A DNA stretch of 64,000 bases, taken from the NCBI GenBank assembly GCA_031261985.1, contig JAISIR010000008.1:2122-66121 (forward strand), in the 5' to 3' direction. Positions within the stretch are counted from its first letter, which is position 1, and every line of letters begins with the position of its first letter. This document shows positions 34,270 through 56,654 of the stretch, piece after piece. A program made the position numbers and the translations under genes. The notes beneath the pieces are model-generated. The model saw only the letters and a program-made list of their open reading frames with translations. It did no database searches and was not told the origin of the DNA. The stretch is from Clostridiales bacterium. GTDB lineage: Bacteria > Bacillota > Clostridia > Monoglobales > WRBX01.

Positions 34270-35670
34270 ATGAAATTGTACAACGATTTAACATTAAATA
34301 AAGACGAATTTATCCCGATTGAATCAGGAAAAGTTAAAATGTATTCGTGCGGCCCAACGGTTTATAATTATTTTCATATAGGTAATGCACGTCCGTTTAT
34401 TTTATTTGATGCGCTTAGAAAATTCCTTGAGTTCAAAGGGATTCAAGTAGATTTTGTACAAAATTTTACCGATGTAGACGATAAGATGATTAATAAGGCT
34501 GCAGAAATGGGGATTTCGGTAAAAGAGTTAGGCGATATGTTTATCGAAGAATACAAGAAAGATGCGAGTGCGCTTGGGATTTCGCCGCCTACTTATGCTC
34601 CGCGTGCAACTGAAACTATTGATGAAATTATTGATATGGTTAAAGTTTTGGTTGATAAAGGATTTGCTTATGAAGTCGATGGTGATGTTTATTTTTCTAC
34701 CAAAAAATTTGCGGATTATGGTGCGCTTTCGCATAAGAATTTAGATGATTTATTAGAAGGTGCGCGAATTGCGGTCGGCGAAAAAAAGCAGGATAATGCT
34801 GACTTTGCTGTCTGGAAAGCGCAAAAGACAGATGACGAAATTGCGTGGGATAGTCCTTGGGGGAAGGGGCGTCCTGGCTGGCATATTGAGTGTTCGTGCA
34901 TGGCGAAAAAATTCTTGGGTGACACAATCGATATCCATACCGGTGGGCAAGATTTGATTTTTCCTCATCACGAAAACGAGATTGCGCAGAGCGAGGCAAG
35001 CAATGGTGTAAAATTTTCTAATTTTTGGATTCATAATGGATATATCAATATTGATAACAAAAAAATGTCGAAATCGGCTGGAAATTTCTTTACTGTCCGT
35101 GAAATTTTAAAGGATTTTGACGGTGAAATTGTTCGATTCTTTATGCTAAGTAGTCATTATCGTAGCCCTATAAATTTTTCGTTCGAGTTGATGAATCAGG
35201 CAAAATCTGGGTTAGAGCGTATTTATACTTGCTTGAGCAATATTGATTTTGAACTTAAAAATGCTGCTGGAATTGATAAAAGAAATGATGTCGCTAATTT
35301 TGACGAATATTCTAAGCAATTTAGTGATGATTTTGTATCGGCACTTGATGATGATTTTAACACAGCCTTAGCTATATCTTCGATTTTTGAATTTGTAAGG
35401 TTGGTTAATAGCGATATTCATGAGTTAAGTAAAAATCAGCTTAATGCAGCAAAAGCTTTAATCTTAAAACTGGGTAAAGTACTTTCGCTTTTTAATAAAA
35501 ATGTTGAACAGAATGAAAGTAAAGTTGATGACGATGTTGAAAAACTAATTAAGGAACGCGAAGATGCGCGAAAGGAAAAGAACTTTACACGCGCAGATGA
35601 GATTCGTGAAATCCTTAAAAACAAAGGAATTATTATTGAAGATACTCCAATGGGAACGAAAATCGTGTAA
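34270..35670 (+). CDS. cysS: Cysteine--tRNA ligase
   Basis: CGPTVY, HIGN, GRPGWHIEC, HHENE, KMSKS; ATG at 34270 (the upstream ATG lies in the promoter). Confidence 0.98.
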   Translation: MKLYNDLTLNKDEFIPIESGKVKMYSCGPTVYNYFHIGNARPFILFDALRKFLEFKGIQVDFVQNFTDVDDKMINKAAEMGISVKELGDMFIEEYKKDASALGISPPTYAPRATETIDEIIDMVKVLVDKGFAYEVDGDVYFSTKKFADYGALSHKNLDDLLEGARIAVGEKKQDNADFAVWKAQKTDDEIAWDSPWGKGRPGWHIECSCMAKKFLGDTIDIHTGGQDLIFPHHENEIAQSEASNGVKFSNFWIHNGYINIDNKKMSKSAGNFFTVREILKDFDGEIVRFFMLSSHYRSPINFSFELMNQAKSGLERIYTCLSNIDFELKNAAGIDKRNDVANFDEYSKQFSDDFVSALDDDFNTALAISSIFEFVRLVNSDIHELSKNQLNAAKALILKLGKVLSLFNKNVEQNESKVDDDVEKLIKEREDARKEKNFTRADEIREILKNKGIIIEDTPMGTKIV

Positions 35671-35687
35671 AGTAATTATGCTTTACT
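35666..35687. repeat. GTAAAG-N8-CTTTAC palindrome, copy 1
   Basis: GTAAAG TAATTATG CTTTAC, overlapping the cysS stop codon. Confidence 0.8.
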
Positions 35688-35730
35688 TAGTTTCGATTTA
35701 ATATTCGCGGATATAAGGGGAAGTATAAAT

Positions 35731-36144
35731 ATGAACGAAAATGATAAAAATATTTATAAATGCAATGTGTCTGCGGAAAATTTGAAGACATTAAACTCGG
35801 TTACTTTGGCATATATAGGCGATAGCATATACAATTGGTATATTAAAAAAAGGTTGCTAGAGCAAGGGATTAAGACGATTGGCGAGCTTCATAAAAATGC
35901 TAGCTATTTGGCAAGTGCCAAGTGTCAATCGCTAATTTATGATGAGCTGCAAAGCCTGCTGGAACCAGATGAAATTGATGTTTTAAGACGTGGTAGGAAT
36001 GCAAAATCGACTGTTCCGAAAAGTGCGACTGTTGAAGAGTATAAAAAAGCGACGGCTGTGGAAGCTCTGTTAGGATACATCTACATAAAAGGTGATTTCG
36101 ACCGTTTGGGTTATTTATTGGAAAATGCTATAAAAATTAGTTGA
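35731..36144 (+). CDS. mrnC: Mini-ribonuclease III
   Basis: LAYIGDSIY, RRGRNAK, YKKATAVEALLGY; follows cysS as is usual. Confidence 0.92.
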   Translation: MNENDKNIYKCNVSAENLKTLNSVTLAYIGDSIYNWYIKKRLLEQGIKTIGELHKNASYLASAKCQSLIYDELQSLLEPDEIDVLRRGRNAKSTVPKSATVEEYKKATAVEALLGYIYIKGDFDRLGYLLENAIKIS

Positions 36145-36250
36145 TATTAATGGGGGGTAAGCCTTTTTGCTTGCAACTATAACGTTAGTGACATAATTTA
36201 TCAACGTCCAATAATTCTGAAAAACGCACCTTTTATCCGAGGTGTAGTGT

Positions 36251-37069
36251 ATGAAAAAGATATTATTATTGACTTTAGGAGATGCGTTATTAGCTTTTAG
36301 CATAATGCATTTTTTAATTCCCGCTAAGCTTGCGACGGGCGGTGTTAGCGGCTTAGCCTCGGTAATTTACTTTGTCACTGGCTGGCAAGTGGGTATTATG
36401 GTTTTTATTTTAAACATACCTATTTTTATTGCCGGGTGGATTTCGTATGGAAAAAAGTTTGTTGTAAAATCGCTTTATAGTACAATAATGCTATCAGTTT
36501 TTCTTACTCTATTCGAGTTTATCCCGATAATTCACTACGACGCGCTACTTTCGAGCGTATATGGTGGCGCAATAGGTGGTTTAGGGATGGGGATATCGTT
36601 TTTAGCAGGCGGAACCACGGGTGGAACGGACATAATCGCCAAAATTCTCAATAAAAAAACACCTAATATATCGATTGGGAATTATGTACTTTTAATTGAT
36701 GCTCTTATTATTGCCGCGACTTGCGTGGCGGTAAGCGATTTGAACGCTGGATTATACTCGGTTATTGCGCTATTTATAAATGCAAAAGTTATTGATATAG
36801 TTTTGCAAGGTACAAATTTTGCCAAAATGGCGATGATTGTTACAGATAAGACTGAAGAAATAATAGCAAACATCCATGAAAAATTGCAGCGTGGAGCTAC
36901 TAAATTGCAGGGAAAGAGGACGTTTAGTAGAAGGAATACAGAAGTTATTTTTTGCACAGTAGGGAATAATCAAGTTGTTAAATTGAAAAAGCTTGTGACG
37001 ATGATTGATGAAAATGCTTTTATTGCGATAACCGATGCGCGAGAAGTAGTTGGTAGGTGGAATAGGTGA
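36251..37069 (+). CDS. YitT-family membrane protein
   Basis: LATGGVSG, GGTTGGTDI, RGATKLQG, DENAFI. Confidence 0.88.
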   Translation: MKKILLLTLGDALLAFSIMHFLIPAKLATGGVSGLASVIYFVTGWQVGIMVFILNIPIFIAGWISYGKKFVVKSLYSTIMLSVFLTLFEFIPIIHYDALLSSVYGGAIGGLGMGISFLAGGTTGGTDIIAKILNKKTPNISIGNYVLLIDALIIAATCVAVSDLNAGLYSVIALFINAKVIDIVLQGTNFAKMAMIVTDKTEEIIANIHEKLQRGATKLQGKRTFSRRNTEVIFCTVGNNQVVKLKKLVTMIDENAFIAITDAREVVGRWNR

Positions 37070-37077
37070 TAAGTTAA

Positions 37078-37153
37078 TGTAAAGCAGAATTGCTTTACTA
37101 AAAAACGTGCGATGATTTATACCAAAAAACAAGTAAAGCAATTAAGCTTTACT
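37078..37153. repeat. GTAAAG-N8-CTTTAC palindrome doublet (copies 2 and 3)
   Basis: Copies start at 37079 and 37133, between the convergent yitT and galU genes. Confidence 0.85.
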
Positions 37154-38036
37154 TGTTGATATCATAGATTGTTTGCTTTAAAAATTTCAAAAAATCATCT
37201 TTTAAATCGTCGCGTCGCAGAGCATATTCCACAATTGCCTGAATAAATTCTTGTTTATTGCCTAAATCGTAGCGTCTGCCGTTGAAGATGTACGCTTTCA
37301 TTTTTTCTGACTTTGCCAAGGTATTTAACGCATCGGTAAGCTGAATCTCGCCACCGCTACCTGGTTTTGTTTCTTCTAAAATACTAAAAACTTCGGGGTT
37401 AATTACATATCTGCCTAAAATTGCAACATTGCTCGGAGCGGCATCTACGCTAGGTTTTTCTACCAATGAATCGACACTATAAATGCTTGGCTCAATCAAT
37501 TTGCCGTCGACTATTCCATACTTGTTAACGTTTTCGCGTGCGACTTCTTGAACGCCAAGTACGCTGACTCCGCTATTATCATACACATCTATTAGTTGCT
37601 TAAGGCAAGGAGTTTCCTGGTTATTCGTGTACACCACATCGTCGCCAAGCATAATTGCAAATGGTTCGTTACCCACAAAACTTTTGGCGTATAAAATGGC
37701 GTTGCCTAAGCCTTTCATCTCTTTTTGACGGATGTAATGGATATTTGCAAGGTTAGAAATCGCTTGTAATTCCTGCAACATCTCGGTCTTTCCAGAGTTT
37801 TCAAGTTCGGTTTCAAGCTCGTAAGATTTATCAAAGTGGTCCTCGATAGCTTTTTTAGTGCGCCCAGAAATTATAAGAATATCCGTGATTCCGCTGGCAA
37901 CTGCCTCTTCGACTATAAGTTGAATGGTAGGAATGTCTATCACGGGCAACATTTCTTTAGGCACAGCCTTGGTTGCAGGTAAAAATCGTGTGCCTAAGCC
38001 TGCCGCTGGGATAACTGCCTTGGTAACTTTTTGCAT
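37149..38036 (-). CDS. galU: UTP--glucose-1-phosphate uridylyltransferase
   Basis: PAAGLGTRFLPATK, KEMLP, LGDD, VEKP, GEIQLTDA. Confidence 0.97.
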   Translation of the reverse strand: MQKVTKAVIPAAGLGTRFLPATKAVPKEMLPVIDIPTIQLIVEEAVASGITDILIISGRTKKAIEDHFDKSYELETELENSGKTEMLQELQAISNLANIHYIRQKEMKGLGNAILYAKSFVGNEPFAIMLGDDVVYTNNQETPCLKQLIDVYDNSGVSVLGVQEVARENVNKYGIVDGKLIEPSIYSVDSLVEKPSVDAAPSNVAILGRYVINPEVFSILEETKPGSGGEIQLTDALNTLAKSEKMKAYIFNGRRYDLGNKQEFIQAIVEYALRRDDLKDDFLKFLKQTIYDINK

Positions 38037-38146
38037 TATGTATTTTCCTTTCTTTAACTATCGATTTCTCTTATAATTTATATATTAAAAATATAAAAAG
38101 GTGAAGAAGCGAATCCCCACCCTTATTAATTTTTAGTTAATATGTA

Positions 38147-38497
38147 TTAAGCCAAGCCGCGACCAAGAACAGGAGTAGCCTTAACTTCTGCAGTTTTAAG
38201 AGCGGCAGCTTGAGTTTTAGATTTATCGGCAATTTTAAGAGCCTCATTAATTTTTGTATTCATAACTATAAATAGTTTCTCAAATTTTGGGAAATATTGA
38301 GAAAGATGGTCAAAAAGTTCTGGCTGAAATAAAGTACCATTTTCACCTTTAGGCATGCGAGCATCAAAATAATGTAGCATTGCCTCTTTTTTAGCTTGCA
38401 TTTTAAGATTAGGTTCCATTTCTAAAATAAATAAACCTAAAGCTTTACTATTTTTAAATTGCTTGCCTGTGCTAGTCATCTCTTTTGTCATTTTCAT
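38147..38497 (-). CDS. Hypothetical protein (116 aa), no family recognised
   Basis: ORF with its own promoter and a G-rich pre-start sequence. Confidence 0.65.
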   Translation of the reverse strand: MKMTKEMTSTGKQFKNSKALGLFILEMEPNLKMQAKKEAMLHYFDARMPKGENGTLFQPELFDHLSQYFPKFEKLFIVMNTKINEALKIADKSKTQAAALKTAEVKATPVLGRGLA

Positions 38498-38571
38498 TTT
38501 AAAGACCCCCGATACTACTTTTGTGTTTGTCTGCCTAATAGTTAGACGTGCAGATAAACACTATACATCAT

Positions 38572-38599
38572 TGTAATACTTCTGTAACATTATTGTAAC
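38572..38599. promoter_or_regulatory. Triple direct repeat TGTAAT-N5-TGTAAC-N5-TGTAAC
   Basis: 11-bp period; overlaps the predicted start site of the 38497 gene. Confidence 0.55.
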
Positions 38600-38602
38600 T
38601 CA

Positions 38603-38632
38603 ATTATAACATAAGGATATGATACCTGTCAA
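38603..38632 (-). promoter_or_regulatory. sigma-A promoter for the orphan gene at 38497
   Basis: TTGACA-N18-TATAAT with extended TG. Confidence 0.7.
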
Positions 38633-38648
38633 GTCTTTTTTAAAAAAT

Positions 38649-38665
38649 TTAACATAAAATTAACA
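38649..38665. promoter_or_regulatory. TTAACA-N5-TTAACA direct repeat
   Basis: Exact hexamer pair, 16 bp upstream of the minus-strand -35. Confidence 0.5.
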
Positions 38666-38746
38666 TTATAGCATTAAATTCAAGCGAATTCAGCCAATTT
38701 TGGATAATATTGTAAATTTTTGACGAAGAGAATCGACATATTTTTC

Positions 38747-38775
38747 TTGACATAACCTCGAGTATATTATATGAT
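38747..38775 (+). promoter_or_regulatory. sigma-A promoter of murC
   Basis: TTGACA-N17-TATGAT. Confidence 0.7.
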
Positions 38776-38832
38776 ATAACTATATTAGCAGCAATATTCA
38801 TGCGATTTTTACCGATTTTTAGGAGTGATATA

Positions 38833-40182
38833 ATGAATCATGTGCATTTTATAGGCATTGGCGGAGTTTCGATGAGTGGGCTTGCACAAATTCTACTTAA
38901 TAATGGTGTTGAAGTTTCGGGCTCGGATAGGCAAAACAGCCCGACGATTGAAATTTTGCGAAATTTGGGAGCTGCGATTTATATAAATCACGCTGAAAGT
39001 AACATAAATAATCCAGATTTGGTTGTGTACACCGCGGCGATTCACAATGATAATGAGGAACTTATGGCGGCGCGGGCTAAGGGGATTCCTACAATTACAC
39101 GCGCGGAGTTTTTAGGCAAGCTTATGGGTGAGTACGAAACCTCGATTGCTATAGCAGGGACGCATGGGAAAACGACGACAACCGGCATGATTGCTAGCGT
39201 TTTTATGGCTTGTGCTAACCCGACGGTGCTACTTGGTGGTAACATGAGTTCTATGAATGGTAATGTGCGGATTGGTGATAAAAAACAAATTATCGTTGAG
39301 GCGTGCGAGTATTGCGATAGTTTTTTAGAGTTTAATCCTAGTGTTTCGCTGATTACTAACGTAGAAGCTGACCATTTAGACTATTTTGACGATTTAGATG
39401 ATATTATCGAGTCTTTTCATCAATTTATGGCGCAAAGCGGGCGAGTGGTGGTGAATGCTGACGATGCGAACGCCATGCGAGCTAGCGAGGGGATTGAGTG
39501 TGTGAAATATTCGGTTGACTATTCTGATTCAACCATTTCCTCTACCAACGATAGAGCCGATTATATTGCTAAAAACATTAGGAATATTCAGGGGAAAACA
39601 CGTTATGAAGCGTGGCATAAGTGTATCAAATTGTGCGATGTTGAGCTTAGTGTAAGAGGGTTACATAATGTGAGCAATAGTATTGGTGCGCTAGCTGTTT
39701 GTCATAGTTGTGGCGTGGCGGTGACGGATATTATTAAGGGTTTGGCAGCGTTTAAAGGGACGGAGCGTCGGTTTGAATACAAAGGTTCGCTTAACGGAAT
39801 TGATTTGTATGATGATTATGCGCATCATCCGACGGAAATTAAGACGACGATTGCAACAGCCCAGGAATTACCTAATAAAAACGTATGGTATATTTTTCAA
39901 TCGCACACTTACACGCGCACGTTAAAGCTTAAAGATGAGTTTATTGAAGTACTATCACCTTTGAAAAACCTTATTATTGCGGACATTTATGCAGCTCGTG
40001 AGGAGCCGATTGATGGTGTAAGTGGTAAGGATATGGCGGAATGGTGTGGGGCAAAATATTTGGGTGATTTTGATGCCATTGCCGCGTATTTGCTGGAAAA
40101 TGCTAAGCCAGGCGATGCGATAATTACAGTTGGCGCAGGCGATGCGGTTGACATAATCGATAAAATTTTGTTGAAAGAGTAA
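38833..40182 (+). CDS. murC: UDP-N-acetylmuramate--L-alanine ligase
   Basis: HFIGIGGVSMSGLA, AGTHGKTTTT, VEACE, DDYAHHPTEI; ATG at 38833 after AGGAG. Confidence 0.97.
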   Translation: MNHVHFIGIGGVSMSGLAQILLNNGVEVSGSDRQNSPTIEILRNLGAAIYINHAESNINNPDLVVYTAAIHNDNEELMAARAKGIPTITRAEFLGKLMGEYETSIAIAGTHGKTTTTGMIASVFMACANPTVLLGGNMSSMNGNVRIGDKKQIIVEACEYCDSFLEFNPSVSLITNVEADHLDYFDDLDDIIESFHQFMAQSGRVVVNADDANAMRASEGIECVKYSVDYSDSTISSTNDRADYIAKNIRNIQGKTRYEAWHKCIKLCDVELSVRGLHNVSNSIGALAVCHSCGVAVTDIIKGLAAFKGTERRFEYKGSLNGIDLYDDYAHHPTEIKTTIATAQELPNKNVWYIFQSHTYTRTLKLKDEFIEVLSPLKNLIIADIYAAREEPIDGVSGKDMAEWCGAKYLGDFDAIAAYLLENAKPGDAIITVGAGDAVDIIDKILLKE

Positions 40183-40222
40183 GGAGTTATTAACAAACGA
40201 TTCTCGTATTACAGACTAATAT

Positions 40223-40254
40223 AAAAAAGGAGAGGCAATTAACCTTTCCTTTTT
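40223..40254. terminator. Bidirectional terminator between murC and trkA
   Basis: AAAAAGGAGAGG-N7-CCTTTCCTTTTT. Confidence 0.7.
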
Positions 40255-40279
40255 AGTATAAGTTAGCATTTACCTTGAA

Positions 40280-40948
40280 TTAATCCCTGCTAGCTTTCTT
40301 GAAAAACTTAAGTGTATCGTTTTTGCCTTCGTTGGTGCAAAGCATTATAAGCCTATCGCCACGCTCGAAAATTGTTTCACCGTTGGGGATTATCCCTGCG
40401 CCATTGCGCATGATACAACCGATGACAGCAGTGGCAGGGAACCCGATATTAGCAAGGGATTCGCCGATTATTTTGTTGTTTTCCATTAAAGTGTATTCTA
40501 TCAGCTGGATTTTCCCATCTTCTAGAGGTAAAAAGTTGACAACTTCCTCGACCGATGCCATTTGCTCGATTATTTGAGCGACAATGTGTGTGTCGGAAAT
40601 AACGGTGTTAATGCCTAGCTTTTGGAAAACGCTAACGTTTTTTGGGTTTGTAACGGTGGCAAATGCGCGACGAATGCCAAAAGCTTTTTTTGCAAGCTGA
40701 CAAATGACTAGATTATGAGAATCCTTTGGCGTAAGTGCAATTAGCAAGTCGTAGCCGTGAACGCCTGCATCTTCCAAGACAAATGGCTTGCTACCATCAC
40801 CCAAAATTACATCTATATTAAATGTGCGCGAAAGGTTGTTGCAATCGTCTTCGTTATTATCTATTACAACAATTTGATGTTTTTTATCTTTAAGCGAGCT
40901 GACAAGGTAATCGACCTTTTTGCCTGCGCCTACAATAGCAATTTTCAT
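40280..40948 (-). CDS. TrkA/KtrA-family RCK protein (TrkA-N + TrkA-C)
   Basis: IAIVGAG, ILGDGS, LEDAG, IIPNGETIFERGD. Confidence 0.88.
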   Translation of the reverse strand: MKIAIVGAGKKVDYLVSSLKDKKHQIVVIDNNEDDCNNLSRTFNIDVILGDGSKPFVLEDAGVHGYDLLIALTPKDSHNLVICQLAKKAFGIRRAFATVTNPKNVSVFQKLGINTVISDTHIVAQIIEQMASVEEVVNFLPLEDGKIQLIEYTLMENNKIIGESLANIGFPATAVIGCIMRNGAGIIPNGETIFERGDRLIMLCTNEGKNDTLKFFKKASRD

Positions 40949-41000
40949 TATAATCCCTCATTTAAATTTGTTCGGTGTGTGTAAAAGTATTTGTGCTTGC

Positions 41001-41465
41001 TTAATTATTCGCAAAAATCTCTTCAAACGATGACATACACAATTTAGTTGGATATATCGTCTTGATATCGTAATCTTGGTTAATAACCTCTTTTGTATCG
41101 TCATAAATTCGCGAAACAACAATAGGCACATCGTAAATTGCCTTAGCTATTTGCGAAATCATGATGTTTACGTTATCGTAATTTGTAACCGCGACAAGTG
41201 CGCGAGCCGTTTTAATGCCTGCTTTTTCCAAGACATTTACATCTGTTGCATCGGCTGCCATGGCGAACCCACTATAATCGGGAGATAGCTTGCGGAAAGA
41301 TTTCTCGTCGACATCGATTACAGTTACGTCTTTGCCTTGGTCGGATAAAAATGCAGAAATTGAGGCACCAAGCCTGCCAGAACCAACAACAATGGTCAAG
41401 TTTGAACGCTTTGTTGGCTTAGGAATTTGATTTTGATTTGATTTTTTACCATTTATATAAAACAT
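41001..41465 (-). CDS. TrkA-N (RCK-N only) protein
   Basis: VVGSGRLG, VIDVDE, ADATDVNVLEKAG, VTNYDNVN. Confidence 0.85.
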   Translation of the reverse strand: MFYINGKKSNQNQIPKPTKRSNLTIVVGSGRLGASISAFLSDQGKDVTVIDVDEKSFRKLSPDYSGFAMAADATDVNVLEKAGIKTARALVAVTNYDNVNIMISQIAKAIYDVPIVVSRIYDDTKEVINQDYDIKTIYPTKLCMSSFEEIFANN

Positions 41466-41511
41466 TTTAACACCTCTGTTAAAGTTTGCATTGGTTTAGT
41501 GTACCAGAATG

Positions 41512-41540
41512 AGTATAACGCTAAAAGTATAATTTGTCAA
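41512..41540 (-). promoter_or_regulatory. sigma-A promoter of the trkA pair
   Basis: TTGACA-N17-TATACT. Confidence 0.75.
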
Positions 41541-41571
41541 GATAAATTTATAATATTACTAAAAATTACAA

Positions 41572-41646
41572 TGTAAAGTATAATTGCTTTACTAATTTTT
41601 GATATCTATCAACATAACAATTCTTGTAAAGTTAGTTAGCTTTACA
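41572..41646. repeat. GTAAAG-N8-CTTTAC palindrome doublet (copies 4 and 5)
   Basis: Copies start at 41573 and 41626; the second contains the mnmA stop codon. Confidence 0.85.
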
Positions 41647-42726
41647 GATAATTCCTCCGCCTAAAACTATATTTTCGTCGTAAAGCACTACAGCCTGCCC
41701 ATTGGCGATATACTTTTGTTTTTCAAGGAATTCTACGCAAATTTTGTTATCGTCAACGGCATGAACAACAGCGGGGACTTCTTTAGAGTTGTATCGCACG
41801 CGCGCGTTGCACTTGATGCTGCCTTGCAAATTAGGGATAGACACCCAATTAATATCCTTTGCAATAAGTGAATTTTTATAGGTTTTATCTTCAGTTCCGA
41901 CGGTTACGATGTTATTTTTTGCATCAATATTGCAGACGTAAAGAGGAGTGGAAGATGAGATGCCAAGACCTTTTCGCTGTCCAATAGTATAATTGAAGTA
42001 ACCGTTGTGTTTACCTAAAATCTCGCCCTCTGTATTTACTATATCACCAATTTTAGGGTTAATTCCGTTTTGAGCCAAAAAATCGGTATATTTACCATTA
42101 GGAACAAAGCAAATATCTTGGCTATCGGGCTTATTGGCATTGATAAAACCATTCTCGTTAGCGATATCTCGAACATCGTTTTTTGTCATTTTACCAAGGG
42201 GAAGCAGGGTTTTGCTAAGTTGATTTTGTGTTAAATTATACAAAACATAGCTTTGGTCTTTAGTTATATCGGTAGATTTTTTTAAAAGCCAACGTTTAGA
42301 AGTTTTGTCATACTCGATTATAGAGTAATGACCTGTTGCTAGATAGTCTTGCTCGAACTTATCGAGAGTATCGAATAGCGCGCCAAATTTTACATAGCGA
42401 TTGCAATCGATGCAAGGGTTAGGAGTTATCCCGTTTTTATAACCCTCTATAAACCTAGATATTACCTCGTTTTTGAAGATGTCTTTATAGTTTAGTAGGT
42501 AAAAGGGAATGCCTAGTTTAGTTGCAACATTGCGTGCATCGTTACTATCTAAAAAAGAGCAACAAGTGCGAGAATTAGCATCGCAAGCTTCGGCACAACT
42601 AGGTGTATCCTCGGTTTCAAACATCTTTAGCATAACGCCAGAGACGTCATATCCATTTTGCTTTAATAGCAAAGTAGCGACGGAGCTATCGACTCCACCG
42701 CTCATTGCAGAAAACACTTTTTTCAT
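41632..42726 (-). CDS. mnmA: tRNA 2-thiouridylase MnmA
   Basis: AMSGGVDSS, TPNPCIDCN, ATGHY, KDQSY, DSQDICF, TIGQRKGLG. Confidence 0.97.
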   Translation of the reverse strand: MKKVFSAMSGGVDSSVATLLLKQNGYDVSGVMLKMFETEDTPSCAEACDANSRTCCSFLDSNDARNVATKLGIPFYLLNYKDIFKNEVISRFIEGYKNGITPNPCIDCNRYVKFGALFDTLDKFEQDYLATGHYSIIEYDKTSKRWLLKKSTDITKDQSYVLYNLTQNQLSKTLLPLGKMTKNDVRDIANENGFINANKPDSQDICFVPNGKYTDFLAQNGINPKIGDIVNTEGEILGKHNGYFNYTIGQRKGLGISSSTPLYVCNIDAKNNIVTVGTEDKTYKNSLIAKDINWVSIPNLQGSIKCNARVRYNSKEVPAVVHAVDDNKICVEFLEKQKYIANGQAVVLYDENIVLGGGIICKAN

Positions 42727-42778
42727 ATGTAAAAATCCTTTAAATCAAGTTATTCTGTAAACTAATTCTGTAAACCAA

Positions 42779-43288
42779 TTATTCTTTTGCTACTTTTATA
42801 AAGGTGAGCCCATAGGCTACAAGCCCGTTAATTGTACCTTTTATAATGTTGAATGCAATGATGAATGGGAGCAGCGGAATGACTGCGTTAATGGGTGTGC
42901 CTAGGAATAACGGAGTAAAAATTAAGTTCCAAATTATCATTATAATGGTCATGGCGGCGACGCCTAGGAGTATTGAAACTAGCTTGCTAAAGCGTTTATT
43001 TGCCGCGCCTAACACGATGACGAATGTCCCTGTTGCAAAAATGTGCATTATAATACCTATGATTCCGCTAGAAGAGCTTACGGTTACACCTTGGATAATG
43101 CTAGCTATTATGGTAATTATCATGCCATCTATTGGGCTAAACATTAGCGTAGAAAAGTAGATGGGAATATCGGCTGGGTCGTACTCTAAAAATGGTACTT
43201 GAGGGAGTAGTGGGAAGTGGAACAAGTAGACTAGAATTATGGAAATTGCTGCTAAAACCCCACATCGTGCTATCATTTTGGTTGACAT
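42779..43288 (-). CDS. ECF transporter S component
   Basis: Hydrophobic; FPLLP..PFLEYDPADIP; ATG at 43288 after AGGAG. Substrate not assigned. Confidence 0.85.
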   Translation of the reverse strand: MSTKMIARCGVLAAISIILVYLFHFPLLPQVPFLEYDPADIPIYFSTLMFSPIDGMIITIIASIIQGVTVSSSSGIIGIIMHIFATGTFVIVLGAANKRFSKLVSILLGVAAMTIIMIIWNLIFTPLFLGTPINAVIPLLPFIIAFNIIKGTINGLVAYGLTFIKVAKE

Positions 43289-43292
43289 AAGT

Positions 43293-44366: not shown

Positions 44367-44399
44367 TCCTAATTAAACTTCGTAATTAAACTTTCGTAA

Positions 44400-46088: not shown

Positions 46089-46120
46089 TTCCTTTTGTAT
46101 GAGGTAAGAATATTTGCGTA

Positions 46121-48550: not shown

Positions 48551-48619
48551 ATTTATTCACCTCATAATTTTAAATTTTGGGTTGATATTTTGAAAGCATC
48601 TTGTAACACGTGAATCGTA

Positions 48620-48648
48620 ATTTTAGTGAGTAAAATCAAGGCTTTCAA
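48620..48648 (-). promoter_or_regulatory. Putative sigma-A promoter of the clp-pilB-pilT unit
   Basis: TTGAAA-N17-TAAAAT. Confidence 0.5.
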
Positions 48649-48665
48649 GCGATATCAATTTTTTT

Positions 48666-49250
48666 TTAATCTTTTGAATTATTACTTTTATTGGCTTCGT
48701 TTGTGGTATAATTATCGCCAAAAGTTTCTTCATAAGCAACTAAACATTCAGAAATTACTCTTAAAGCTTCGTCGCGCCCCATGATTTTTTCAACAACTGT
48801 TTCTTTGTTCTCGAGATATTTATAAACTTCAAAAAAGTGCTTGATTTCTTGGAATAAATGCACAGGAAGGTCGTGAATATCGTTATAACAGCTTAAAGAT
48901 GGGTCTTTATGCGGGATGGCAATGATTTTTTCGTCCATAGCTTCGTCGTCAATCATCTTTAACACGCCAATAGGGTAGCAATTAACTAGAACTAATGGGG
49001 TAATGGGTTCTTGACACAATACTAAAATATCTAGCGGGTCGCCATCTTTTGCATAAGTGCGTGGGATAAAGCCATAGTTAGCAGGGTAGTGGGTGGCGGT
49101 GTAAAGCACGCGGTCTAAAATAAGCAAGCCTGTTTTTTTATCAAGCTCGTATTTCATTTTACTTCCTTTAGAAATTTCTATAACAGCGGTTAAACTTTCG
49201 GGAGTAACGCGGGATTTATCTAAATCGTGCCAAATATTCATTATATTCAC
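48666..49250 (-). CDS. ppa: Family I soluble inorganic pyrophosphatase
   Basis: IEISKGS..KYE, YPANYGFIP, DGDPLD, DEKII. Confidence 0.95.
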   Translation of the reverse strand: MNIMNIWHDLDKSRVTPESLTAVIEISKGSKMKYELDKKTGLLILDRVLYTATHYPANYGFIPRTYAKDGDPLDILVLCQEPITPLVLVNCYPIGVLKMIDDEAMDEKIIAIPHKDPSLSCYNDIHDLPVHLFQEIKHFFEVYKYLENKETVVEKIMGRDEALRVISECLVAYEETFGDNYTTNEANKSNNSKD

Positions 49251-49367
49251 CTCGAAAATTGTTAAGAATAATAAGGGAGTTGATTATTTAATGCTTAATT
49301 AAGTAAATAAGCAGCTTCAGCCAACAAAAATCGCATTCTATGACTTACCTCTATCATTCCCCTATAT

Positions 49368-49396
49368 AGTATATCACAAAAAAATAATTTGGTCAA
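49368..49396 (-). promoter_or_regulatory. sigma-A promoter of ppa
   Basis: TTGACC-N17-TATACT. Confidence 0.7.
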
Positions 49397-49401
49397 GTGT
49401 C

Positions 49402-49429
49402 TTGACATATTTTATTAAATATGTAATAA
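49402..49429 (+). promoter_or_regulatory. Putative sigma-A promoter of pgk
   Basis: TTGACA-N16-AATAAT with extended TG. Confidence 0.55.
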
Positions 49430-49453
49430 TAGAGGGGGATTATCGCATTGTTT

Positions 49454-49481
49454 TTTACAATTGTGTTACAAACCCTTTACA
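49454..49481 (+). promoter_or_regulatory. Triple direct repeat TTTACA-N5-GTTACA-N5-TTTACA
   Basis: 11-bp period in the pgk leader. Confidence 0.5.
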
Positions 49482-49517
49482 ATTCAAGGTACAAACTATA
49501 AATCGAAGGAGATTTTT

Positions 49518-50702
49518 ATGAACAAAAAAACTGTTAAGGATATTAATGTTGCTAATAAAAGAGTATTATTGCGTTGCGACCTTAATGTTCCGTTAGACGA
49601 AAATTTTAAAATTACCGATGACACTCGAATAAATGGTGCGTTGCCTACTATTGATTATTTAGTGGAGCAAGGTGCGAAAATAGTTTTATGCTCGCATTTG
49701 GGGCGTCCTAAGGGCGAGGTTAACCCTAAATTCTCGCTTAAACCAGTGGCTGATGAGTTGAAAAAACGTAGTTATAACATAGTTTTTGCCTCTGATGTTA
49801 TTGGTGAAGATGCCAAGGCTAAAGCAGCTGCTTTGCAAAATGGCGAGATTTTATTGCTAGAGAATTTGCGCTTTCATAAAGAAGAAACCGATAACGACCC
49901 CGAGTTTGCTAAGGCATTGGCTGAGTTTGCCGATGTATATGTAAATGATGCGTTTGGCGCGGCGCACAGGGCACATGCTTCAACCGCGGGGGTAGCTCAA
50001 TATTTGCCAGCTGTGTCTGGATTTTTATTGCAAAAAGAGTTGCAAGTTTTAGGCGATATGTTAGAGAATCCTAAACATCCTTTTGTTGCAATAATGGGTG
50101 GAGCTAAGGTTAGCGATAAAATTCCAGTTATAAAAAACTTGATGAACATTGCAGATACTATAATTATAGGCGGGGGCATGGCTTACACATTTGCAAAGGC
50201 TTTAGGCGGCAAAATTGGTAAGTCTATTTGCGAAGATGACAAAATTGCTTTAGCACTAGAGATTATTGGCGATGCAATGGAGAAAAATGTGAGGATTGTT
50301 TTACCTGTCGACACCGTTGCTACCAAGGAATTTTCTAACGATAGCCCGGCGAAAGTGTTCTCGACTCGTGCGATTGATGATGATTATAGCGGCATGGATA
50401 TTGGTGAGAAAACTCGTGAGATATTTGCAAATGACTTACGCGATGCAAAAACCGTTATTTGGAATGGTCCGATGGGCGTGTTTGAGTTTGATAATTTTGC
50501 AAAGGGTACTTTTAAAATTGCAAAAACCTTGGCAGAACTTGATGATTGCATGACTATAATTGGCGGTGGCGATAGTGCTGCAGCAGTTAAAAAACTTGGA
50601 TATGGCGATAAAATGGGGCATATATCTACCGGTGGCGGTGCTTCGCTTGAGTTTATTGAGGGCAAGGAATTGCCAGGCGTGGCTGCGCTTAATGATAAGT
50701 AA
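49518..50702 (+). CDS. pgk: Phosphoglycerate kinase
   Basis: [48 protein letters not shown]; ATG at 49518. Confidence 0.98.
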
Positions 50703-50819
50703 ATTGCTAATGATAAGTAAAATTTTTATGCAATAGTTTTATGATAAGCGATACATTTTGTGAATGTGTGGAGCTTTTAATTAATCAAATCTATTTTTAA
50801 AGAAGAGGAAAGTATTTAA

Positions 50820-51602
50820 ATGAAAAACGTTATTTATGCAGGAAATTGGAAGATGAACAAGACAAATTTAGAGGCAGAATCGTATGCTGATGAGATTTTA
50901 AATCTAATTGAACAAAATAATTTAAACGATAAAAAAATTATAATCTGCCCGCCATTTACATCTATTAATACATTAGCTAAAAAGCTTAAAGGAAGTAATG
51001 TAAAAGTAGGCGCGCAGGACATTTTTTCGGAATCTAACGGTACGTTTACAGGTTGTATTTCTGCCGAAATGGTTGCAGGCGCAGGCGCTGAGTATGTTAT
51101 AATTGGGCATTCTGACCGTCGCAATAAGTTTGGCGAAAGCGATGAAATAGTTGCAAAAAAGGTTAATCTTGCTTTGGGTGTTGGTTTAAAACCCATACTT
51201 TGTGTAGGCGAAACCTTGCAGCAACGTAACGATAATATGACGATGCAAGTTCTGACTGAACAGCTGACTATTGCGTTGGCAGATGTTGCGGCAGCTGATT
51301 ATTCTAATATAATTATCGCGTACGAACCCGTGTGGGCAATAAGTAGTGGGAAGGTTCAAAAAGGTAGTAAAAGCCAGGCAGCAAATAGTGCAACAGCCGG
51401 CTTGGATTGCATGAATATTCGCAAACTTTTACGCGATAAATTTGGTGAATCTACCGATGCGATTGCGATTTTATATGGCGGAAGCATGAACTCTAGTAAT
51501 TGCAAGGAATTTTTTGCTCAAGACGAGATTAGTGGCGGGCTTATGGGTGCGGCGTCGCTTTCAGCATCTGATTTTATTGAAGTAATGTTGAACGAAGAAT
51601 AA
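50820..51602 (+). CDS. tpiA: Triosephosphate isomerase (divergent)
   Basis: AGNWKMN, IGHSDRR, AYEPVWAI, YGGS; located between pgk and gpmI. Confidence 0.93.
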   Translation: MKNVIYAGNWKMNKTNLEAESYADEILNLIEQNNLNDKKIIICPPFTSINTLAKKLKGSNVKVGAQDIFSESNGTFTGCISAEMVAGAGAEYVIIGHSDRRNKFGESDEIVAKKVNLALGVGLKPILCVGETLQQRNDNMTMQVLTEQLTIALADVAAADYSNIIIAYEPVWAISSGKVQKGSKSQAANSATAGLDCMNIRKLLRDKFGESTDAIAILYGGSMNSSNCKEFFAQDEISGGLMGAASLSASDFIEVMLNEE

Positions 51603-51663
51603 GGGTTAATACATAATGTTTTAGAAAACACGATAAATTTTGCAAATAGAAGAGGCTAAAAAT

Positions 51664-53184
51664 ATGCTTACACTTTTAATTTTGGACGGGTTTGGAATTA
51701 ATAATGATTCGTTTGGTAACGCGATTGCCCAGGCTAACACTCCTAATTTAGATAGAATTTTCAAGAATTATCCTTATACTCAAATTCAAGCGAGCGGTTT
51801 AGCTGTTGGCTTGCCAAAGGGTCAAATGGGGAATTCTGAAGTTGGGCATATGAACATGGGCGCGGGCAGGGTTGTGTATCAAGATTTAACCTTAATTGAT
51901 AAATCTATAGAAGATGGCGATTTTTTTGAGAACCCTGCGTTTAAAAATGCTATAGATAATTGCAAAAACAATGGTTCTGCCTTGCACTTGATGGGATTGC
52001 TAAGCGATGGCGGCGTGCATAGCCATATTACACATTTATATGCGCTGCTTCAATTGGCTAAAAACTCAGGGCTAACCAAGGTTTACGTGCATGCGTTTTT
52101 AGATGGGCGCGATACTCCGCCGCAAAGTGCTGTTGATTATATCGCTCAGTTACAAGATAAAATTGCAGAAATTGGCGTGGGCGAAATTGCTACTTTATGT
52201 GGAAGATACAACATTATGGACCGTGATAACCATTGGGATAGGATTCAAAAGGGTTATGACGCGATTTGCAACGGCAAGGGGAATTTTGCCACGGATGCTA
52301 TAGAGGCGGTTAAGGCTTCGTACGCTGCCAAACGTGACGATGAATTTGTGGAGCCGATAGTAATTACTAAGGATAAAAAGCCAGTTGCAACCTTGAATCC
52401 TGGCGATTCTATTATTTGCTTTAATTTTCGTAAAGATAGGGCGCGACAGTTTTCTCACGCGTTTGTAGATGAGGATTTTGCTGGTTTTGAAAGAAAATAT
52501 ATCCCAACTACTTTTGTTGCATTCACTAATTATGATAAAGAGCTAAAAAATATCGAAATTGCCTTTAATCCGCCACCTATTTTGAATAATCTAGGCGAGT
52601 ACACGACTTCTTTAGGCTACAAAAATGTTAGGATTGCCGAGACGGAAAAGTATGCGCACATCACCTTTTATTTTAACGCGATGGTTGATAAATGCTATAG
52701 TGGCGAGGATAGAATTCTGATTCCTTCCGAAAAAGTTGCTACGTTTGACCTTTCGCCAAAAATGCGTGCGATGGAGATTAAAGATAAAGCTATAGAGGCG
52801 ATAAATTCTAAAAAATATGACTTTGTGTTTATTAACTTTGCGAATTGCGATATGGTAGGTCACACCGGTAATATTTCGGCTGCTATCCAGGCGGTTGAGG
52901 CTGTCGATTCTGCAACGCAAGAAGTAGTTGATGCTGTTAAAAATGTAGGTGGAACAACGGTTATCACTGCCGACCATGGCAATGCCGAGGTTATGCTTGA
53001 TAAAACTACGAAAATTCCTGTTACTTCGCACACCACCAGCCCTGTTCCGTTCTGCATTGTAAGCGATTCTAGTTATGTTCTTAGGGCGGATGGCAAGCTG
53101 GCTGATGTTGCGCCAACGATACTAGATTTAACCGATATCACTAAACCTGCAGAGATGACAGGCGAGAGCTTGATAATTAGGTGA
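51664..53184 (+). CDS. gpmI: 2,3-bisphosphoglycerate-independent phosphoglycerate mutase
   Basis: ILDGFG, GQMGNSEVGH, DGGVHSH, AETEKYAH, DMVGHTG, TADHGNAE. Confidence 0.97.
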   Translation: MLTLLILDGFGINNDSFGNAIAQANTPNLDRIFKNYPYTQIQASGLAVGLPKGQMGNSEVGHMNMGAGRVVYQDLTLIDKSIEDGDFFENPAFKNAIDNCKNNGSALHLMGLLSDGGVHSHITHLYALLQLAKNSGLTKVYVHAFLDGRDTPPQSAVDYIAQLQDKIAEIGVGEIATLCGRYNIMDRDNHWDRIQKGYDAICNGKGNFATDAIEAVKASYAAKRDDEFVEPIVITKDKKPVATLNPGDSIICFNFRKDRARQFSHAFVDEDFAGFERKYIPTTFVAFTNYDKELKNIEIAFNPPPILNNLGEYTTSLGYKNVRIAETEKYAHITFYFNAMVDKCYSGEDRILIPSEKVATFDLSPKMRAMEIKDKAIEAINSKKYDFVFINFANCDMVGHTGNISAAIQAVEAVDSATQEVVDAVKNVGGTTVITADHGNAEVMLDKTTKIPVTSHTTSPVPFCIVSDSSYVLRADGKLADVAPTILDLTDITKPAEMTGESLIIR

Positions 53185-54567
<1,383 letters not shown>

Positions 54568-54613
54568 ATTTTGCATGATACAGTAAACATAATTTGTAAA
54601 GGAGATACAAAAA

Positions 54614-54859
54614 ATGGCATGGTTAAAAATTAGTTTAATAGTGCTACAACTTATCATTAGTTTAGTTTTGATAATTGTAGTTCTGTTACAACCAAGCAAA
54701 ACTGCTGGGCTATCACAGTCAATTTCTGGCGGAGAAACCGAGACTTTCTTCGGCAAAAACGGTGGTTCTACCTACGAATCTATTATGAAACGCGTAACCA
54801 GCGTGTGCGCGATTCTGTTCTTGCTAACCTCTATTGCATTATCGATTTTTGCTTTATAA
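54614..54859 (+). CDS. secG: Preprotein translocase subunit SecG
   Basis: Two TM helices, VLLQPSKTAGLS..I.GG; follows eno as is usual. Confidence 0.92.
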   Translation: MAWLKISLIVLQLIISLVLIIVVLLQPSKTAGLSQSISGGETETFFGKNGGSTYESIMKRVTSVCAILFLLTSIALSIFAL

Positions 54860-54897
54860 TTGAGGGTTACAAGGGTTTAAGCGAGGATTTTTGCATT

Positions 54898-54936
54898 AAA
54901 AAAGCTATGGAGCGAGTAATGTTCCATAGCTTTTTT
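54898..54936. terminator. Bidirectional terminator after secG
   Basis: AAAAAAGCTATGGA...TCCATAGCTTTTTT. Confidence 0.85.
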
Positions 54937-54967
54937 GCGTTTTGTTATATATTCTAATGTTACATTT

Positions 54968-55515
54968 TTAGTTTTGCGTATTTTTTAAGTGTTTTAAGTG
55001 TTTTAAGTCTAAAAATATTCCACACAGACATATTGTAAATAAGACAATTTCTTCTGCCACGCCCAATGGCGAACCGATTAACCAATTGTATGTGAAATAT
55101 AATATAGATTGAGGAATTTGCAGGTATTTAAAGGTTAAATGATTCTTTTGTAACATTGAGTAAACTTGGCAAAATATTGCGATTAGGGGTAAAAAGCTAA
55201 TGAATCCTGCATATGTAAAAATGAAAATAGCAATAGAGGCGGCGTCTAAAATTAGCATTGTTACAAGTTGACGGCGTTGAAAGGTTGCGGTCTTTGAAAA
55301 ATAGGGAAGGTTGCCGCAAATGCTAACGATAAAAGAAATAACTATAAGTCCCGCGCCTGTCCACGCTTGCAGGAGTGCAAATGATGATATGAAAAATATG
55401 TTTGAAATTAACATATTAATCTGAATCCATCGCATGTTACGTATAAGGTATGTCGATAGAACCAACAGGAACCAATAAACACGCAAATTTGTGATAAGAT
55501 AAAAGCCGTTGACAT
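54968..55515 (-). pseudogene. YgjV-like inner-membrane protein with an apparent 1-nt frameshift near 55470
   Basis: GAGGT RBS + ATG at 55515 gives MSTAFILSQICVFIG; the body (LLVLSTY...LLQAWTGA) is in another frame; adding one T at GGTTCC joins them. Could be a sequencing error. Confidence 0.55.
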
Positions 55516-55534
55516 AATTTTACCTCTTCAATAA

Positions 55535-55556
55535 AGTAAAGTATTACGACTTTACT
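55535..55556. repeat. GTAAAG-N8-CTTTAC palindrome, copy 6
   Basis: AAGTAAAGT-ATTACG-ACTTTACTT, downstream of dxr. Confidence 0.8.
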
Positions 55557-55595
55557 TGACATAATTTTATAAATATGAATATTGTTGTTGCTTTA

Positions 55596-56654
55596 TTATT
55601 CAAATACTTTTTCGACTGTTTTTTGAATGTCTAAAAAGTTGATTTCACCCTTTAAAAACTTAGCAACTGCCTCGTCATTTGCTTTGTTAACTTTTAGTGG
55701 ATAATCACCACCTAAACGCCCTGCTTTAACGCCTAACTCAAAACAAGGGTAGCGATTTTTATCTACATCGGCAAACGAAAGTTGTGAAAGCTTTGTAAAG
55801 TCAATCTGCTTTACATCGATGTTTTGCTTATTGGGGTATGTTATAGCATTTGCAATTGCCAAACGCATATCGGGCATGGCAAGTTGCGCAATAACACTAC
55901 CATCTACAAACTCTACCATACTATGGATAATACTCTCGCGGTGCAAAACAACATCGATTTTATCGTAGGGTAGACCAAACAAATGGTGCGCTTCTATGAC
56001 TTCAAATGCCTTGTTCATCATGGTTGCGCAATCGATAGTAATTTTGGCTCCCATGGTCCAATTGGGGTGTTTTAGTGCATCGGCAGCGGTTACATTATTT
56101 AGTTCATTAAGTGGGTTATCCCTGAATGCGCCGCCCGATGCAGTGATGATAATCCTTGAAATATCCTGAGGTTTAAAGCCGCGAATACATTCAAAAATTG
56201 CTGAATGCTCGCTATCTATCGGAAGTATATCTGCTTTACAGTCTTTAGCGAGTTTCATAACTTCATCGCCAGCTGTTACTAATACTTCTTTGTTTGCAAG
56301 TGCAATAGTTTTGCCAGATTTTATGGCAGATTTAGTTGGTTCGATGCCTGCGACGCCGACCATGGCTGAAACGACCATGTCACCCTTGACAAGCTGAGCT
56401 ACTTTACATGCACCTTTTTCGCCATATTCAATATTTACGTCAGGGAAATCGCGGAGTAATATCCTAGCATTCTCCTCGGTTTTCACCGAAACCATTTTAG
56501 GCGCAAATTTTTTAATCTGTTCCGACAACAATTCTATGTTATCACCGCACGAAAGCCCAACTACTTTACAACCTAATTTTTCGGCAACGTCTAAGGTTTG
56601 AGTTCCAATCGAACCTGTCGAACCTAAAACGATTAAATTTTTACTCTTTTGCAT
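55596..56654 (-). CDS. dxr: 1-deoxy-D-xylulose-5-phosphate reductoisomerase
   Basis: LGSTGSIGTQTL, LANKE, PIDSEHSA, TASGG, HPNWTMGAKITIDCATMMNK. Confidence 0.97.
   Translation of the reverse strand: MQKSKNLIVLGSTGSIGTQTLDVAEKLGCKVVGLSCGDNIELLSEQIKKFAPKMVSVKTEENARILLRDFPDVNIEYGEKGACKVAQLVKGDMVVSAMVGVAGIEPTKSAIKSGKTIALANKEVLVTAGDEVMKLAKDCKADILPIDSEHSAIFECIRGFKPQDISRIIITASGGAFRDNPLNELNNVTAADALKHPNWTMGAKITIDCATMMNKAFEVIEAHHLFGLPYDKIDVVLHRESIIHSMVEFVDGSVIAQLAMPDMRLAIANAITYPNKQNIDVKQIDFTKLSQLSFADVDKNRYPCFELGVKAGRLGGDYPLKVNKANDEAVAKFLKGEINFLDIQKTVEKVFE
55794..55815. repeat. GTAAAG-N8-CTTTAC palindrome, copy 7 (inside dxr)
   Basis: GTAAAG TCAATCTG CTTTAC; encodes VKQIDFT on the minus strand. Confidence 0.65.

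Follow-up and report, generated by a model that had tools for sequence, protein, structure and literature searches.

Short protein-binding DNA sites serve bacterial and phage genomes in several ways. The matS/MatP, NBS/Noc, SBS/SlmA and parS/ParB pairs (NBS and SBS being the Noc- and SlmA-binding sites) organise the chromosome; datA and clusters of DnaA boxes are titration sinks, by which the level of free protein is coupled to DNA content; and in Cluster A mycobacteriophages the repressor (gp71 of L5, gp69 of Bxb1) blocks transcription elongation when bound to the sites called stoperators. The element considered here is a 22-bp palindrome with the core GTAAAG-N8-CTTTAC, found in a stretch of 64,000 nucleotides from a Clostridiales bacterium (GenBank assembly GCA_031261985.1, contig JAISIR010000008.1). 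This stretch, referred to as the window, corresponds to C9:2122-66121 of a 1.44-Mb genome in 21 contigs, labelled G000; relatives carry the labels G001-G040, and families f4 and f5 belong to the order of G000. Judged by sequence identity, the window palindromes are copies of a box conserved at the promoter of ylxM-ffh, the signal recognition particle (SRP) operon.

YlxM, a protein conserved across Firmicutes that minimal cells cannot do without, has mostly been treated as accessory to the SRP; the Streptococcus mutans protein binds both Ffh and SRP RNA (PMC8546722). For the DNA-binding domain of the KorA repressor, the YlxM fold is the nearest structural neighbour (PMC2665229), and the YlxM of Mycoplasma pneumoniae (MPN424) gives specific peaks in chromatin immunoprecipitation sequencing (ChIP-seq) and represses one operon, mpn656-660 (Yus et al. 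2019, PMC6721554).

Exact matches to GTAAAG-N8-CTTTAC start at positions 35667, 37079, 37133, 41573, 41626, 55536 and 55795 of the window, exactly where the original prediction, made from the letters of the window, had placed its seven cores. No exact copy precedes 35667, in line with its statement that the first 35 kb hold none, and none follows 55814. Over the whole genome there are 17 exact copies, every one with an 8-bp spacer: the same arms gave no match genome-wide at spacers 0-7 and 9-14, three pairs in total over spacers 0-20 except 8, and none in the swapped order CTTTAC-N8-GTAAAG. One-mismatch variants number 9 genome-wide, against 1-6 at control spacers; the GTCAAG/CTTGAC variant accounts for three of them and brings the total to 20, and two-mismatch variants are at background level. 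The hexamer GTAAAG is not over-represented in the genome (877 observed, 937 expected), which disposes of the idea of a DNA uptake sequence.

An excess of this kind could in principle lack a function and arise from composition, from codon usage or from conserved peptide motifs, and two copies lend themselves to such an explanation: the one in glgB encodes a conserved YVKxxGFTH and recurs in G004 and G040, and the one in ligA sits in a conserved (V/S)KVxD(L/F) region. For the whole set it is refuted, and its probability is close to nil. Besides the restriction to spacer 8 with nothing at neighbouring spacers, eight copies lie fully within open reading frames (ORFs), against a mean of 0.18 and a maximum of 2 in 300 synonymous-codon shuffles; 100 dinucleotide-preserving shuffles of the window contained no exact match; contigs with galU from unrelated metagenomes, an external control of 590 kb, held no copy with spacers of 7, 8 or 9 bp (N7, N8, N9); and reversed-pattern controls give only 0-2 matches per genome. 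The copies within ORFs exceed the codon-preserving expectation and those of the window the dinucleotide-preserving one, comparisons of a kind that had been proposed along with the original prediction. The glgB box alone may be a coding by-product of YVKxxGFTH.

The consensus of the box is T-GTAAAG-[not A]-N-W-W-W-W-N-[not T]-CTTTAC-A, with TGTAAAGCAATTAAGCTTTACT as a representative 22-mer; the flanking base is T/A in general and W in G000, and the 6-bp cores are exact in all seven window boxes. The original prediction had described spacers that start with a pyrimidine and end with a purine, and A/T flanks, and these features extend to the 17 genome copies with few exceptions (first spacer base a pyrimidine in 16/17, last a purine in 16/17, base preceding the core A or T in 33/34 half-sites). 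When the spacer is symmetrised, A is absent from position 1 in all 34 half-sites of G000 and in all 40 at ylxM promoters, and A/T predominates at positions 3-4 in either set, so that dispersed and ylxM copies share the same half-site profile, with T/W before the core, no A in first place and an A/T-rich centre.

Within the order, a pattern search detected the motif in 38 of 41 genomes (40 relatives plus G000), with 1-32 copies each, and a class-level search found it in 94 of 151 genomes, mostly as a single copy and with recurring A/T-rich spacers. All 20 single copies that were fetched, from many families of Clostridia, lie between a TTGACA-17-TATAAT-like promoter and ylxM-ffh; the arms of the ylxM box are identical in 20 Clostridia genomes, and the box usually starts 1-11 nt after the -10 element in the 20 fetched promoters (1-3 nt at most of them). 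When motif and ylxM coordinates were matched, 38 other Clostridia genomes proved to have an exact box, often their sole copy, within about 120 bp on the upstream side of ylxM. Beyond these, a box of the N8 or N7 type is present in 63 of 80 named Firmicute genomes collected through Ffh, at a distance of 375-650 nt before ffh and thus just ahead of ylxM; these genomes include Bacillus, Paenibacillus, Peribacillus, Syntrophomonas and many Clostridia, and Bacilli are thus covered. G000 has its native ylxM copy on another contig (C7:14440), in the order TTGACA-17-TATAAT, 7 nt, box, ylxM-ffh-rpsP-khpA, and a second box at rpsP was looked for there and not found. The seven window copies all lie away from ylxM and are dispersed extra copies. 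Many native ylxM promoters carry two boxes 50-57 bp apart (loci L188, L193, L205, L210, L214, L218 and L231), where the right arm of the upstream box (CTTGACA) forms the -35 element and the downstream box covers the transcription start.

The original prediction had called the palindrome unrecognised, and had offered three candidates for it: a nucleoid-organising site, a dimeric regulator operator, and a minimal REP or RNA-processing tag. The first statement stands insofar as no description of the box was found in the searchable literature (YlxM, UPF0122, motif sequence), and falls insofar as the motif is no orphan. Given its identity as the conserved ylxM-ffh promoter palindrome, the dimeric operator came closest among the three.

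The presence of the box at the ylxM-ffh promoter throughout Clostridia makes YlxM its most likely reader. The gene is present in 149 of 150 Clostridia genomes, and its single copy in G000 encodes 116 amino acids that match PF04297 and Sigma70_r4, both above cut-off, as well as the PDB entries 1xsv and 1s7o. Its recognition helix, ITRQ(G/A)VRD.IKR, is near-invariant across the order, which agrees with the invariant arms of the box, and the half-site CTTTACA resembles a -35 element, which suits a reader of the sigma-region-4 type. In addition, no ylxM hit was obtained in any of the three box-free relatives (G002, G003 and G022). Taking together the type of helix-turn-helix (HTH), the ChIP precedent and these box-free relatives, the box is best read as a putative YlxM operator.

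The seven boxes of the window and the features beside them, with neighbouring genes named by Pfam scans, are the following.

Box 1, 35666..35687, tGTAAAGtaattatgCTTTACt: includes the TAA that ends cysS (35668-35670); the start of mrnC (mini-RNase III) follows 44 nt downstream.
Box 2, 37078..37099, tGTAAAGcagaattgCTTTACt: 9 nt past the yitT stop codon, between the convergent yitT and galU.
Doublet of box 2 and box 3: 54 bp from start to start.
Box 3, 37128..37157 (core 37133-37152): a 12-bp stem followed by TTTTTT on the minus strand; holds the galU stop codon (37149-37151).
Candidate sigma-A-type promoter, 41512..41540, minus strand: TTGACA-17-TATACT, a consensus match only, for the TrkA-N gene at 41001-41465.
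Box 4, 41572..41593, tGTAAAGtataattgCTTTACt: upstream of the promoter of the trkA-type gene.
Box 5, 41625..41646, tGTAAAGttagttagCTTTACa: holds the mnmA stop codon (41632-41634) and forms a 53-bp doublet with box 4.
Box 6, 55535..55556, aGTAAAGtattacgaCTTTACt: between the dxr stop codon and the start of a ygjV-like gene.
Box 7, 55794..55815, tGTAAAGtcaatctgCTTTACa: in the coding sequence of dxr, over the codons ...I D V K Q I D F T K...; the stop codon of the gene follows after 199 nt.

The doublet of boxes 4 and 5, between mnmA and the TrkA-N gene, lies upstream of the TTGACA-17-TATACT promoter, and on the minus strand the left arm of box 4 is a possible second -35 element (TTTACA-16-TATTAT). 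A perfect direct repeat of 14 bp, TTGACATAATTTTA, stands on both sides of box 6, at 55509-55522 and 55556-55569, and each copy of the repeat begins with a consensus -35 on the plus strand, antisense to dxr; repeats of at least 12 bp occur at about 0.1% of random positions. The TTGACATAATTTTA pair may be a local 47-bp duplication or an antisense promoter pair gated by box 6. An orphan gene of 116 amino acids within the window cluster has no box in its leader.

Six copies had been described as lying at or near gene 3' ends, and three of them as holding the stop codons of cysS, galU and mnmA; both descriptions are borne out by the coordinates above, box 7 being the one copy away from a gene end. 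Over the genome, four of the 17 boxes supply a TAA stop codon through the GTAAAG arm, the fourth being that of tyrS (C18:3584). The preference for gene ends in the window, together with the 12-bp stem and T-tract of box 3 after galU, is what would be expected if the palindromes acted as RNA or were REP-like (repetitive extragenic palindromic) hairpins, namely 3'-end, terminator or stabiliser stem-loops that have spread to gene ends; in ylxM leaders, moreover, the seventh pair in the transcribed orientation is U.G in 13 cases versus C.A in 4. Nevertheless, such an origin is very improbable on several grounds. Among over 100 copies compared across genomes, the arms stay the same and compensatory changes are absent, and the spacer or loop has a fixed length and a free sequence. 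Intragenic copies, which make up about half of those in G000 and most of those in relatives, occur in different frames and in either orientation. A stable G+C-containing stem with a T-tract, as in intrinsic terminators, is found only in box 3 among the seven (-15.7 kcal/mol), the other six window hairpins ranging from -4.5 to -9.3 kcal/mol and having no T-tract. Finally, with the box 1-3 nt after the -10 element at most ylxM promoters, standard promoter geometry implies that the transcript should start in the left arm, which would make a hairpin impossible there.

The element is therefore not treated as a relative of REP sequences, of bacterial interspersed mosaic elements (BIMEs) or of miniature inverted-repeat transposable elements (MITEs): 8 of 17 copies are inside ORFs, their flanks and spacers are unrelated and their arms do not vary. 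Flanking direct repeats of at least 10 bp occur at only one of the 17 copies, and a mobile element was rejected in view of the unrelated flanks and the lack of target-site duplications. These same traits, with the copies inside genes, also speak against the REP or RNA-tag candidate of the original prediction, whereas its proposal of a sequence-specific dimer site rather than ordinary terminators gains from the strict N8, the invariant arms, the intragenic copies and the weak hairpins devoid of a T-tract in six of the seven. The sequence runs that match G000 are DNA only, from a termite-gut metagenome. The best reading is of an element that would act at the level of DNA rather than RNA, and box 3 is likely an operator copy that doubles as the galU terminator.

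Most Clostridia have one copy of the box; G000 has 17, G001 of the same family has 16, and several f4/f5 genera have 6-32. On contig C1 of G036, 10 intra-ORF copies are found versus 0.44 expected, and DNA-level selection is therefore not peculiar to G000. The extra copies are maintained by selection on the DNA. They are also clustered: seven fall within 20 kb in G000, versus a maximum of five in 5000 random placements, and 13 of the 17 have a neighbour within 1.5 kb, versus a simulated mean of 0.55. Relatives show regional clusters as well: a 60-kb region of G010 has 9 copies, and a 75-kb region of G036 has 8. Pairs are spaced by 54 and 53 bp in the window and by 54 bp in G010, with 66, 77, 110 and 125 bp elsewhere, and the resemblance of the window doublets to the native two-box layout at ylxM suggests cooperative binding.

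The genes that bear a box or adjoin one in G000 include cysS, galU, mnmA, dxr, ligA, glgB, prfB, mutS2, tyrS, hpf and hisA, and in G001 uvrA, uvrB, gltX, purL, der, miaA and spoIIIAA. These neighbours are unrelated housekeeping genes, and the logic of a regulon was rejected on this ground. The sites are largely non-orthologous among G000, G001, G004, G010 and G036, the only shared places being ylxM, ligA, glgB and the 3' end of tyrS. In ligA, the boxes of G000 (C4:15508, L005) and G001 (C71:9902, L034) occupy the same (S/V)KVxD(L/F) segment with a 1-nt shift, and hence different frames. At the 3' end of tyrS, box pairs are present in G000 (C18:3568-3664, L002; 77 bp) and in G010 (C2:80092-80164, L069; 54 bp) in non-orthologous nucleotides; the two genomes belong to different families, and the pattern suggests turnover of the individual sites at a location that is itself maintained. 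The closest galU locus in metagenomes is 67% identical, and no closer relative was found there.

Overall, the best explanation, and one considered probable, is that YlxM operator copies have been multiplied beyond the ylxM-ffh promoter and selectively kept. A symmetric dimer of an HTH protein would read the box on double-stranded DNA; YlxM dimers would occupy each box, exert negative autoregulation at the ylxM promoter and bind paired boxes cooperatively. The extra copies would then be high-affinity docking sites whose exact position matters little, and which would form either a sink that buffers free YlxM, and hence the set-point of ylxM-ffh-rpsP, or a set of architectural anchors. A position-independent role of this sort is favoured by the high turnover of sites, the intragenic copies and the lack of a regulon. 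Local roadblock or insulator effects are likely at the cysS/mrnC, mnmA/trkA and dxr/ygjV boundaries, as is a terminator hairpin at galU. A titration sink, roadblocks and an architectural role are all candidates for what the extra copies do.

Several points weigh against this explanation. In G000, 9 of the 17 copies touch intergenic DNA (p = 4e-5), a boundary bias more readily explained by a local role in transcription than by a sink alone, although most copies are intragenic in G001, G004 and G036, which fits the opposite. The DNA-binding data on YlxM stem from one Mycoplasma study and not from a Clostridial protein, and the M. pneumoniae motif was published as a figure only. G038, a genome that is 73% complete, has 9 boxes and no ylxM hit. 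GC skew, DnaA boxes and synteny gave no conclusive placement of the clusters relative to the replication origin and terminus (ori/ter) in the 21-contig assembly. Lastly, the ylxM-proximal box is N7 in all nine f4/f5 multi-copy relatives and N8 in all six low-copy relatives, while the dispersed copies of f4/f5 (6-32) are mostly N8, with few N7; if the YlxM of these families were tuned to N7, a separate reader of N8 would be conceivable.

The latter thought leads to the main rival account, in which the dispersed N8 boxes are read by another dimeric DNA-binding protein, for instance a lineage-specific nucleoid-associated protein or a global regulator with a sigma-4/LuxR-type HTH, that shares or has captured the YlxM half-site and for which the ylxM promoter is merely one target. 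Apart from the mismatch in spacing, it would fit the restriction of the expansion to a few families of one order, given that ylxM is nearly universal, and the resemblance of the clustered, partly intragenic sites to those of chromosome-organising proteins. It is nonetheless regarded as unlikely. In G000 and G001 the ylxM box is itself N8, with the same flank and spacer preferences as the dispersed copies; N7 copies are modestly enriched in f4/f5 too, interleaved with N8 ones (G010 has an N8 and an N7 box 54 bp apart), and are absent from G000 and G001; no candidate gene for a second reader was found; and a canonical ParB/parS system is present separately.

With the arms unchanged, N7 spacing at ylxM occurs in nine relatives of the order (G012, G026, G030, G010, G004, G009, G028, G020 and G036; loci L051-L055, L060 and L062-L064) and in 27 of the 80 named Firmicute genomes (loci L169-L245), a distribution that suggests lineage-specific retuning of the operator. 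The idea that N7 at ylxM predicts many N8 copies was rejected, since N8 copies number only 0-2 in 24 independent N7-type genomes, save for a single genome with 6; as the prediction fails outside the order, the link between N7 and multiple copies is phylogenetic and not general. Those f4 relatives with at least 6 boxes share a C-terminal '(L/V)PW(V/I)' in YlxM (G004, G012, G026, G030, G028, G036, G020, G009 and G014) that is absent from low-copy f4 genomes and may only mark a subclade.

A further version of the account based on YlxM, rather unlikely in itself, would have YlxM as a chromosome-wide DNA-binding protein as well, with the intragenic operator clusters, made by synonymous changes, serving as a DNA-content-dependent sink or anchor. 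Coupled to self-repression of ylxM-ffh-rpsP-khpA by YlxM, such a sink would tie the expression of SRP and ribosome-assembly functions to chromosome copy number; alternatively, the boxes would tether SRP components to the nucleoid. Among the traits of macrodomain-like sites, copy number, intragenic copies and clustering (7 in 20 kb) fit the boxes; as to position, GC skew on contig C1 of G036 follows the gene strand. The extra copies may yet have the nucleoid-organising role that the original prediction had listed.

As regards known motifs, parS was rejected because the box differs in sequence from the canonical 16-bp palindrome TGTTNCACGTGNAACA near soj-spo0J. G000 has parS-like sites of its own, three identical copies of TGTTCCACGTGGAACA at C10:8685-10832, just upstream of soj and parB. 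The same contig (164-13009) begins with spoIIIAA/spoIIIAD-like genes, and the organism is probably a spore former. The Noc NBS is absent from G000 except for one match with one mismatch. To our knowledge, the box does not fit the spacing of cre, Rex, TnrA, LexA, PadR or NtcA sites either.

A box that is letter-perfect at ylxM promoters across a whole class provides a concrete, if putative, operator for YlxM, and bears on the question of why Gram-positive SRP operons carry a protein with a sigma-4-like HTH. Its multiplication 6- to 32-fold, even inside essential genes, suggests that DNA binding can matter well beyond autoregulation, and YlxM may act as a DNA-binding protein throughout the genome in this lineage of Clostridia from the termite gut. 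If the extra copies are a sink or an anchor, they would be a novel case of operator titration on the chromosome of a bacterium; a titration or architectural circuit of this sort, derived from a housekeeping operon's own operator, is not known for the SRP pathway.

Among described systems, the YlxM of M. pneumoniae is a counterpart of the presumed box reader: it belongs to the same family (UPF0122/PF04297), has a sigma-region-4-like HTH and is documented by ChIP-seq and expression data. It differs in having one target operon, which we take to be the rpsP-trmD-rplS part of the Firmicute ylxM-ffh-rpsP operon, as opposed to the 17-32 boxes of multi-copy Clostridia. KorA/KorB of plasmid RP4 (PMC2665229) is a plasmid system with a 12-bp operator that occurs at promoters only and never within genes. 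Chromosome-organising sites (matS, NBS, SBS and parS) share with the boxes the form of tens of short, near-exact palindromes, both intra- and intergenic and regionally clustered, and differ in sequence. datA and the DnaA boxes are likewise clustered high-affinity sites of an autoregulated DNA-binding protein, with another protein and another motif; the sink role for the boxes themselves is an inference. Mycobacteriophage stoperators also combine an operator at the protein's own promoter with dozens of near-identical sites in transcribed regions; they are, however, asymmetric, orientation-dependent and of phage origin, in contrast to the symmetric boxes, which belong to the chromosome of a bacterium and are not known to affect elongation. 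Phage stoperators and titration loci are thus the known kind to which the present case is related, and what is new here is the multiplication of an operator, under selection, inside housekeeping genes.

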